Shown: positions 13,410-41,377 of the stretch, piece by piece
How positions within the stretch are numbered: position 1 is the first letter of the stretch
How the letters are laid out: each line of letters opens with the position of its first letter
DNA from: Octopus vulgaris
Lineage: Eukaryota
Length of the DNA: 64,000 nt
NCBI GenBank assembly: GCA_951406725.2
Contig: OX597835.1
Location: 33,232,001-33,296,000, forward strand
Direction of reading: 5' to 3'
Translations under genes and position numbers: made by a program
The notes under the pieces: model-generated
The model's input: the letters and a program-made list of their open reading frames with translations, nothing else
Databases searched by the model: none
What the model was told of the DNA's origin: nothing

Positions 13410-14368
13410 CTATATATATATATATATATAAACGGCAGTTTGTCTGTCTGTGTGTCTGTCAGGTTGTACCCTCACCCTGACCACGACTTTCAACCGACTC
13501 TGATGAAACTTGACACACACATAGCCCAATGTCATAATTCAAAACTAACGCAGCGGAAATTTTGAAATATTCCCCCAGTTCTGAAAAAATTTGATAAATT
13601 CGACATGGGGTCGAGAATCAGAAACACAAACCACAGACTGTCTAGGGGACGCAACTCGACCTTTTTAACTCTCAACTCCATCAATATCCTGCTACTTGAA
13701 GCTATTCCTGGTGATGTCCACGTCTACAAATCTATTGATAGGACAGCAGACCCCTCCGAGCTTGCCGATTATCCTGTTGAATTCCTGAATTCACTTGAAC
13801 CGCCAGGCCTGCCGCCACACATCCTGAAGTTAAAAGTCGGTGCGCCCATTATGCTCATCAGGAATTTGGTTTCACCTAAACAATACAACGGCACACGTCT
13901 GGTTGTGAAACATTTGCCACCAGATTTAATAACGGCCACAATACTTACCAGTTGTGGGAAGGGAGAGGACGTCTTCATTCCACGCATGCACCTTCAACCG
14001 TCGGACGCTGACCTACCAATCCACTTCAGGCGTTCTCAGTTTCATATTAATCTCTGCTTCGCAATGGCCATCAATAAATCCCAAGGCCAAACGTTACAAG
14101 TCGCTGAGTTACAGTTGGGCGAACAGTGCTTCGCCCACGGTCAACTCTACGTGGGCTGTTCACGCGTTGGGAGGCGCAATGATGTTTTCATGTTTTCCCC
14201 CAAAGGGACAGCTAGGAACATCGTATACACAGAAGTATTCGAGTGAAGAGAAGACATTGCAACCTACACATGCGCCTTCCTTCTCTAGAGGAAAAGGACT
14301 GGATTGGGATTAATCGTTGCCTACTAGGGGCTCTTACATACCCGGGCAACGCCGAGCTATGCTGCTAG
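13410..14368 (+). mobile_element. Internally deleted Helitron
   Basis: 5' (ta)n-aacggcagtttgtctgtctgt; PIF1 helicase fragment inside; 3' GC-rich hairpin-like cccgggcaacgccgag followed by CTAG|T at 14365-14369. Confidence 0.85.
13605..14246 (+). CDS. Helitron Rep-Hel C-terminal PIF1-family helicase fragment (213 aa, N-terminally truncated)
   Basis: Motifs [74 protein letters not shown]. Confidence 0.9.
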   Translation: [213 protein letters not shown]

Positions 14369-24641: not shown

Positions 24642-25119
24642 TTCAGGCCACATGATTTACAATATCATACCTTTTTCCCCCTGGCTGAAAAGTTGAAACT
24701 TGCGTAATTAAAAAAAAATGTTTATTGCATTCTGGGAATGGCGTTGAGATAGAGCAACTCTGATATCCATCAGGGAAACATTATATCACTCTGTTTAGTA
24801 TATTTGTTTGACAATAATAATTGAGTCATAAAAGAAACCAAGAAAGGAAGAAAACGACTATTAGCTAGACATAAGTGTGTAAACAGATAACAATAATAGC
24901 TCTGTTCAATGCTAATAAATTCTTGCAGTTTCGCACGTGAATATCTGATCGCCGCTGTTTCCGCCATCGGAGGATACCTCCTCTGCGTAAGTGATTCAAC
25001 GGTTTACCGATGGATGAGGACTTTGAGTTACTGCAATGTTTCAACCGTGTTATCTAATCAGATGGGGGACAGGAATACATAGAGATACATGGATGTATAA
25101 CGTTGGTATACAAAGAATA

Positions 25120-25355
25120 AGGCGACGAGCTGGTAGAACCGTTAGCACGCCGAGCGAAATGCTTAGCGGTATTTCGTCTGCCGTTACGTTCTGAGTTCAA
25201 ATTCCGCCGAGGTTGACTTTGCCTTTCATCCTTTTGGGGTCGATAAATTAAGTACCAGTTACGCACTGGGGTCGATGTAATCGACTTAATACCTATGTCT
25301 GTCTTTGTTTGCCCCCTCTGTGTTTAGCCCCTTGTGGGTAATAAAGAAATAGGTA
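25120..25355 (+). mobile_element. SINE family B, full length, with tail ...gccccttgtgggtaataaagaaatagg
   Basis: A/B-box-like head; many copies in the window. Confidence 0.9.
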
Positions 25356-40200: not shown

Positions 40201-40219
40201 GTACAAATCATGCTTTCAA

Positions 40220-40585
40220 AAGTCGTTAGAACCTCAGACAAAACGCTTTGCTGTATTTCTTCCAAATCAACATTTCGCGTTCAAATTTCCCCACGTATGA
40301 CTATTTCTTTATTACGCACAAGGGGAAATATGGGACGCTTACTGCACCTAGGTTTCCCAAGCGGTCACCCATCTAAGTACTAACTAGGCTCGATGTTGCT
40401 TAACTTCGATGATCGGAAGAGAACCGGTGCTTTCAACGTGATATGGCCGTAAACTCTTCCACGTATGGACTTTACCTTTCATCTTTTCGAGATGTCGATA
40501 AAATATGTACCAGTTGAGCACAGGAGCCGATGTACTTGACTTAACTTCTTCCCTTACAATTACTGGCTGTGTGCCAAAACTGGAA
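40220..40585 (+). mobile_element. Old SINE family B copy interrupted by the 5S insertion
   Basis: ttcaaatttccccacgtatg | gactttacctttcatc is continuous with the family B consensus once 40300-40467 is removed. Confidence 0.65.
40335..40454 (-). pseudogene. Full-length (120 nt) 5S rRNA retrocopy fused to a SINE-B-type 3' tail
   Basis: Minus strand gtttacggccatatcacgttgaaagcaccggttctcttccgatcatcgaagttaagcaacatcgagcctagttagtacttagatgggtgaccgcttgggaaacctaggtgcagtaagcgt is an animal 5S rRNA with box A and box C; single copy, no oligo-T terminator. Confidence 0.92.
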
Positions 40586-41377
40586 AGAATTACGATATAT
40601 CTTCTAAAGGCGGAGATAACTTTTATAAATCAATCATTTATGTCGTATGGTTTGTAATATACTTGTATTTGTTTAAGTTACTCAGGTCAACTTTCAGATG
40701 TTTATGGCACTCCCCCACCACCGTTCTCACTACGATTATAATACAAATTACTTCTTTTTAGCAAGTTTTCAATCTGTTTTTTTAATTTATTTGTGTATTT
40801 ATATAGCGTCTGGCAAGTATTTATTACCTATCGTTTTTTCTGGTGATTTGTTTCAATTTTTTTATTGTTCTTTATTTTGTTATGTCTCATTGTAAAGTTT
40901 GCCATTCTGGTGTATTTATATTTATATTTTATTTTTATATTTGCTTTGTTTTGTTATTGAGATAAAATCTTGGGCATTTTTGATTTCATGATTTAAATAG
41001 ATTTTTTTTTTTTCACGATTTTGCTTACATGATTTATCGGCATATTTTTTTATGAACTAAAAACAAAAACTCAGACACAGAAGAAAAATAGAAACAGAGA
41101 GAAACAAACAGACAGAGAGAGGGGGGGGAGAAAGACGGAAATGGAGGGAGAGAAAGAAATAAAGGTAGAGAGGGAGAGACAATGAAGAGAGCTTTTATTT
41201 TTTTTACAATGTCATTAGAGGTCTTTGTGAAGTGAAAAAACATATTTCAACCATGTACTGAAATCGCGCGCATCGTCGAGGCTTCTCATTCCGCTTCGTA
41301 ACACTCTCTCGCATAACACTATTAGTAGGTATAATGTGTGGAAGGTTCTATACACGAGCAAGATTAAAACAGTTTCT

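Follow-up and report, generated by a model that had tools for sequence, protein, structure and literature searches.

The insert described here is a single-copy retrocopy in the Octopus vulgaris genome that joins a full-length 5S rRNA to the last 24 bases of a SINE, with both parts inside one target-site duplication. It was probably made by a LINE reverse transcriptase that jumped from the SINE tail onto the oligo-U end of a 5S RNA. By our estimate, the locus is one of several hundred separate SINE or LINE insertions headed by 5S, U6, or 7SL. The insert lies in a 64,000-nucleotide stretch of contig OX597835.1 (positions 33,232,001 to 33,296,000), hereafter the window, whose coordinates are used unless a contig or locus is named. 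SINE families A, B, and D and the tails carry working labels, and the tRNA origin of these families was judged by eye or taken from the first-pass annotation.

Read along the minus strand, the insert is bracketed by an exact 9-bp repeat, with one copy on its 5′ side (40459–40467) and the other on its 3′ side (40291–40299). This 9-mer was the longest flanking repeat, in agreement with the target-site duplication called by the first-pass annotation. Four extra bases (40455–40458) precede 5S base 1. They differ from the upstream flank of array genes and are probably a non-templated addition. The 5S copy (40336–40454) was the sole match to Rfam RF00001 in the window and spanned model positions 1–120 with a score of 100.9 bits, confirming a full-length minus-strand 5S rRNA of 119 nt rather than the 120 nt first proposed. 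It is followed by a 10-nt linker (40326–40335) and then by the terminal 24 nt of either SINE family B or its partner LINE (40302–40325), which has one mismatch against positions 25328–25351. This family B 3′ end occurred five times in the window and never in 100 shuffles. The first-pass annotation had assigned the entire tail to family B and reported no oligo-T terminator. The SINE assignment held for the 24 nt but not for the linker, which resembles 5S gene trailers when compared with these and with the U6 3′ end. Likewise, there is no run of four T, but the three T that end the linker are a terminator remnant. The ordinary 3′ spacer of a 5S gene, offered as an alternative source of the tail, could thus account for the trailer-like linker but not for the SINE-derived sequence beyond it. 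As in chimeras of the U6/L1 type, a complete small RNA lies 5′ of the retroposon part and in the same orientation.

The insert interrupts an older SINE on the opposite strand, whose 5′ part (40214–40290) and 3′ part (40468–40595) rejoined as one plus-strand element when the insert was removed in silico. This element had been called SINE B. It does share its head and core with family B (full-length reference copy at 25117–25352, plus strand), but its 3′ end is closer to that of a sister family (local score 201 versus 189). Contigs from run X2 spanned both focal junctions with 0 and 1 differences, and one contig from run X5 spanned the 5′ junction, so the insertion is not an assembly artifact. 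Among the joints listed for runs X2, X4, X5, X7, and X11 (15 of 141 in one listing), no empty allele was seen, although such contigs lose rare variants. ARAGORN detected no tRNA anywhere in the window, and an open frame at 13566–14246 (plus strand) with a Pif1 helicase 2B domain is probably a Helitron fragment.

Compared with 105 array copies, the focal 5S departs from the majority letter at bases 2, 37, 46, 102, and 112, while base 39 is polymorphic within the array. None of these differences falls in the internal promoter region, which we take to be about bases 50–97. Past the 5S end, four T in a row are first met after 94 bases; transcription reading through to that point could, in principle, yield an RNA of about 213 nt that takes in the tail. 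We considered and rejected the possibility that the unit is a genuine 5S gene, because it has neither the upstream element nor the long T-run terminator found in the genes on contigs C4 and C5. Upstream signals are reportedly needed by 5S promoters (PMC3272025), so the absence of this element suggests that the focal copy is probably silent.

We searched the 2.80-Gb genome (227 contigs) with exact patterns, which can overlook older mutated copies. Two patterns covering the focal junction each returned one match genome-wide, and a looser pattern that paired any 5S end with the bare family B tail returned three loci with three different junctions. The first-pass annotation had proposed either an undescribed minimal 5S-headed SINE family or a one-off chimera. 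A single-copy junction does not support the former, and it is what the latter predicts. For such SINEs, SINEBase asks for an identity to 5S rRNA of 60% or more across 60 nt or more, and for 100 or more interspersed copies of one element (PMC3531059). The full-length Rfam match places the focal unit within the identity requirement, while one locus with the focal junction falls far from the copy number. By that definition, these chimeras are RNA pseudogene chimeras and not a SINE family. An amplified family of 5S plus SINE A was also rejected. The SINE A subfamily in question has 5,778 exact copies, and about 10 of 32 loose matches had a 5S-type trailer, with varied junctions by eye.

Dispersed 5S copies of the same layout were common. 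Searched genome-wide, an exact pattern covering 15 bases of the 5S end matched 306 times in forward and 519 times in reverse orientation, the reverse matches being repeated about 2.3-fold by a variable gap in the pattern (75 rows representing 32 loci). From these we estimate about 530 5S-end loci, roughly 400 of them outside arrays. Among the matches listed (100 rows), a retroposon directly followed the trailer in 52 of 57 loci inspected by eye. Matches sharing the focal allele at base 112 (last pattern position not C) numbered 63 and comprised four genes and 59 dispersed copies, the latter classified by script. Retroposon motifs directly followed the trailer in 56 of the 59. Their partners were 28 short tails, nine LINE-type 3′ ends, eight SINE A, six SINE B, three SINE D, and two B tails, such that full-length SINEs from three families made up 17 of the 56. 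Two of the three copies left without a motif-assigned partner showed partial partner sequence by eye. The copies were also largely complete at their 5′ ends, beginning within the first 12 bases of 5S in 56 of 59 cases, and a G preceded base 1 in 14 of the 21 copies complete to that base. Only two pairs shared a junction.

The same partners were found behind two other RNAs. For U6 and 7SL, the top-scoring matches rather than random samples were examined, giving 30 U6 loci (from 48 matches) and 25 7SL loci. Partners shared with 5S followed U6 in 22 of the 30 loci; five others were array genes and three had no partner, so that 22 of 25 U6 loci outside the array had a retroposon partner. Fourteen 7SL loci belonged to an array on C5 and one was a further gene, while 10 of the 11 others carried the same partners by eye. 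The U6 array (C1:139,423,000–139,429,000; L095–L099) contains at least five copies and the 7SL array (C5:143,067,000–143,116,000; L210–L222, L233) at least 14.

No LINE sharing the family B tail was found among the 30 of 150 reverse-transcriptase matches examined. The 5S at L176, a further copy, runs into a disrupted LINE-like reading frame, which terminates 1.6 kb on in one of the common tails and so supports identification of that tail as a LINE 3′ end; tblastn comparison of the frame with sampled reverse transcriptases gave no match. At L189, the short-tail match falls past the end of the LINE at that locus. The commonest short tail has one fixed start, alike in solo and chimeric copies. 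A tail of about 50 nt, resembling two hairpins, also occurs solo at L081:8869, L092:589, L108:888, and L109, where it begins at the fixed 5′ position that it also has in chimeras; we found neither a parent element for it nor a matching Rfam family.

Several loci showed more elaborate arrangements. The partner at L014 and L046 is an endonuclease-type frame (Pfam PF03372), and at L046:1791–2863 (C1) the 5S and its trailer precede the 5′ region of a LINE-like element with the endonuclease domain. At L045:3701–5200 (C25), two 5S copies lie head to tail, each with an array-type trailer, followed by an open frame of 429 codons. This frame had no Pfam match but looks Penelope-like by eye from a sequence motif; the locus is possibly a double capture by another element class. 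Family B often forms partial head-to-tail tandems (L004, L006, L012, L016, L021, and L172). The arrangement at L021 suggests that older copies receive new ones at a single internal site, complementary to the family's own 3′ end.

The trailers connect dispersed copies with 5S genes. The main array on C4 (C4:35,207,000–35,335,000; L034–L044, L083, L084) gave 128 matches in the 120 kb examined and nine more in the next 30 kb. Its units are tandem and about 506 bp mid-array, with mixed orientation and differing trailers at both ends. A decayed cluster on C5 (16,409,000–16,500,000; L068–L077) has copies of two classes, 12 in all over 160 kb. The trailer of one class is seen on many dispersed chimeras, which indicates that those chimeras record a formerly active 5S variant. 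At both sites the genes are preceded by a conserved upstream element and followed by short trailers, specific to the gene, and by long T runs. The dispersed copies do without the upstream element and retain gene-like trailers that end within or before the T run, and the letters at 5S bases 61, 102, 112, and 119 co-vary with trailer type. These features are what would be expected for copies of primary 5S transcripts. By eye, nine of the 56 linkers in the focal-allele set had four or more T. Two loci, L133 and L158, have an A-rich linker in place of the gene trailer and possibly derive from oligo-adenylated 5S RNA.

A single change separates the focal linker from the trailer carried by L015 and by other 5S chimeras, and the most likely source of the linker is the 3′ trailer of a 5S gene's primary transcript. 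As the linker is equally one change from the U6 3′ end, this origin is likely rather than certain. No source gene of this trailer type was found in the array stretches examined on C4 and C5, and this one trailer class may even come from a dispersed 5S chimera acting as a secondary source.

The SINE portions of the chimeras were compared with solo copies, and the starting bases are the same in both. In a family B tree of 16 chimeric and 14 solo rows, chimeric and solo labels were unclustered, with 14 label changes compared with 14.3 after shuffling. The family A tree contained 26 chimeric and 23 solo rows. Here the largest trailer class required 10 changes and formed a single clade in 0 of 200 bootstraps, and a solo copy was the nearest neighbor in 13 of 19 cases. 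This class was mildly clustered, as 5 of 500 shuffles gave values as low, which fits shared age and is also compatible with a little amplification. Branch support in the trees is low (two and one starred branches). Taken with the differing junctions, these comparisons suggest that each chimera locus arose as an independent event.

A duplication enclosing the whole unit was recognized at L012, L015, L021, L026, L158, L160, and L167, and at U6 loci L094 and L100. Such clear cases involved family B partners and a few others, and were rare outside family B. Among 53 loci with a located partner end, eight passed the duplication score (four of them AT-repeat-like), compared with a mean of 2.7 and a maximum of 6 after shuffling; these genome-wide statistics are weak because many insertions sit in AT repeats.

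In the pathway we favor for the focal unit, a LINE reverse transcriptase would start on the family B 3′ end, jump end-to-end onto a primary 5S transcript at its oligo-U 3′ terminus, copy the 5S through to base 1, and add a few untemplated bases. The same jump could be made onto oligo-U-ended polymerase III RNAs in general, including 5S, U6, and 7SL. For the R2 enzyme, jumping depends on untemplated nucleotides, chiefly A (PMC8857657); these could base-pair with U ends. The same source reports that A overhangs of at least three bases are non-productive and that jumping is perhaps unneeded in vivo, and these points count against a jumping explanation. So does the focal partner, which as a 24-nt fragment could have borne a 5′-OH. 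Such an end would suit the main rival, in which 5S RNA was ligated to a fragment of SINE RNA before reverse transcription, as demonstrated for human U6/L1 with RtcB (PMC6789731). Many partners, the focal one included, are indeed 5′-shortened pieces, and the fixed start of the commonest short tail resembles that of a cleavage product. Ligation nevertheless seems unlikely to us. The 17 full-length SINEs among 56 partners start where solo copies start, and short tails at six loci had no Rfam match to a known ribozyme family. Primary polymerase III transcripts bear a 5′ triphosphate, and neither 7SL nor 5S precursors are known to carry cyclic-phosphate 3′ ends. RtcB requires a cyclic-phosphate 3′ end and a 5′-OH, is blocked by a 5′ triphosphate, and, in the text available, 5S precursors are not known to end in cyclic phosphate (PMC6789731). 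With full-length SINE partners, these end requirements make ligation a poor fit.

Three further explanations carry less weight. A double switch, in which the enzyme left the SINE tail for the U6 3′ end and then entered 5S through a short shared stretch, would make the linker U6-derived. Over the final five bases of 5S plus the linker, 14 of 15 positions agree with the U6 3′ end, and U6 is captured in this same genome. We nevertheless consider this improbable, given that the linker is equally close to the trailer on other 5S chimeras such as L015, that the focal letters at bases 102, 112, and 119 are those accompanying the L015-type trailer class, and that one change per 10 nt is consistent with the 3–4% divergence of the focal copy. 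Two sequential events, in which a SINE tail was inserted at the T-rich end of a solo 5S retrocopy, would explain why many chimeras have no clean whole-unit duplication. This is very improbable for the focal unit, whose two parts share one duplication, and the required precursors are nearly absent, as only three of 59 dispersed 5S copies had no motif partner and two of these were the partial cases noted above. It is just as improbable that the focal unit belongs to, or founded, a self-propagating minimal SINE (SINE3) family with a 5S head. The unchanged internal promoter region and the predicted tail-containing read-through RNA would favor this reading, as would an automated Octopus vulgaris annotation that includes four undescribed SINE/5S families covering 9.8 Mb (PMC13282606). 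Against it, the focal copy has no counterpart of the upstream element conserved in true genes, its tail is changed at a position kept in at least 45 of 48 family B tails, and the three loci of the same layout all differ. For the focal junction itself, the single locus refutes the reading within the sensitivity of exact-pattern searches. A jump onto a 5S transcript thus remains our preferred account of the focal unit. Its extension is more tentative, and we would place it slightly short of an even chance: that in this lineage SINE-mobilizing reverse transcriptases routinely end insertions by jumping to oligo-U polymerase III RNAs, and have thereby produced hundreds of independent 5S, U6, and 7SL proto-SINEs.

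Related chimeras are known in vertebrates. U6 is joined to L1 in human, to L2 and Mon-1 in platypus, and to L1, L2, RTE, and AnolisSINE2 in Anolis (Doucet et al. 2015, PMC4476161). As in octopus, these comprise a polymerase III RNA placed 5′ and in sense, followed by a retroposon 3′ part in one insertion, and are independent events; partners likewise include several LINE clades and SINEs, and the oligo-U end was the proposed cause. The vertebrate cases involve U6 or U6atac, number in the tens per non-mammalian genome, and are 5′-truncated in platypus. The octopus set differs in featuring 5S (an estimated 400 loci, mostly full-length and with gene trailers), 7SL as well, and many full-length SINE partners. 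Human 5S rRNA/LINE-1 chimeras (Cell Genomics 2026, PMC13174262) similarly combine 5S and a retroelement 3′ part in one target duplication. However, the 27 human cases are typically antisense and truncated and were attributed to twin priming, whereas the octopus chimeras are sense, full-length, and trailer-bearing.

The octopus chimeras also resemble established SINEs. SINE3, AmnSINE1 (via PMC4824008), and HaSE3 of Helicoverpa (PMC3272025) carry a 5S head on a tRNA-type SINE body or tail, and the proposed origin of such SINEs is a switch of template in which copying passes from SINE RNA to 5S RNA (PMC4824008, PMC4758252, PMC4494074, PMC3272025). Those families are amplified with one shared junction, whereas almost every octopus junction is unique and no sign of amplification was seen. 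The octopus chimeras look like the raw starting events. Hagfish SINE1-1_EBu, mobilized by RTE, has a 7SL head on a SINE (PMC7245038). It is amplified and has an internal 7SL deletion, while the octopus 7SL chimeras are near-whole and have varied partners.

Besides SINE/5S, the tables of the 2026 Octopus vulgaris repeat annotation list U and U-L1 classes, and its main text, as available, contains no occurrence of 'chimer', 'rRNA', or 'snRNA' (PMC13282606). The 9.8 Mb assigned to SINE/5S far exceeds our chimera estimate, implying either that the consensuses also mask solo SINEs and arrays or that a diverged 5S family was missed. In the open literature, we found no cephalopod description of 5S, U6, or 7SL chimeras, and no description of sense, full-length, trailer-bearing 5S chimeras at the octopus scale. 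U6 chimeras of this kind are already known.

By itself, the focal locus is an ordinary, probably dead retrocopy. Its interest lies in the set to which it belongs. The origin of SINE heads by switching onto 5S or 7SL RNA is usually inferred from finished families; the octopus genome instead offers intermediates by the hundred that have not been amplified, open to counting and to inspection of their junctions. The dispute between RNA ligation and enzyme jumping also gains a test case, namely 5S and 7SL heads on full-length SINEs, for which ligation is a poor fit. In practice, such chimeras can lead automated pipelines to report false 5S- or U6-SINE families. If routine jumping is correct, end-to-end template jumping in vivo, and with it the step from which SINE3 and SINE1 families arise, would be recorded across the octopus genome, and the captured trailers would preserve 5S gene variants that are now extinct.
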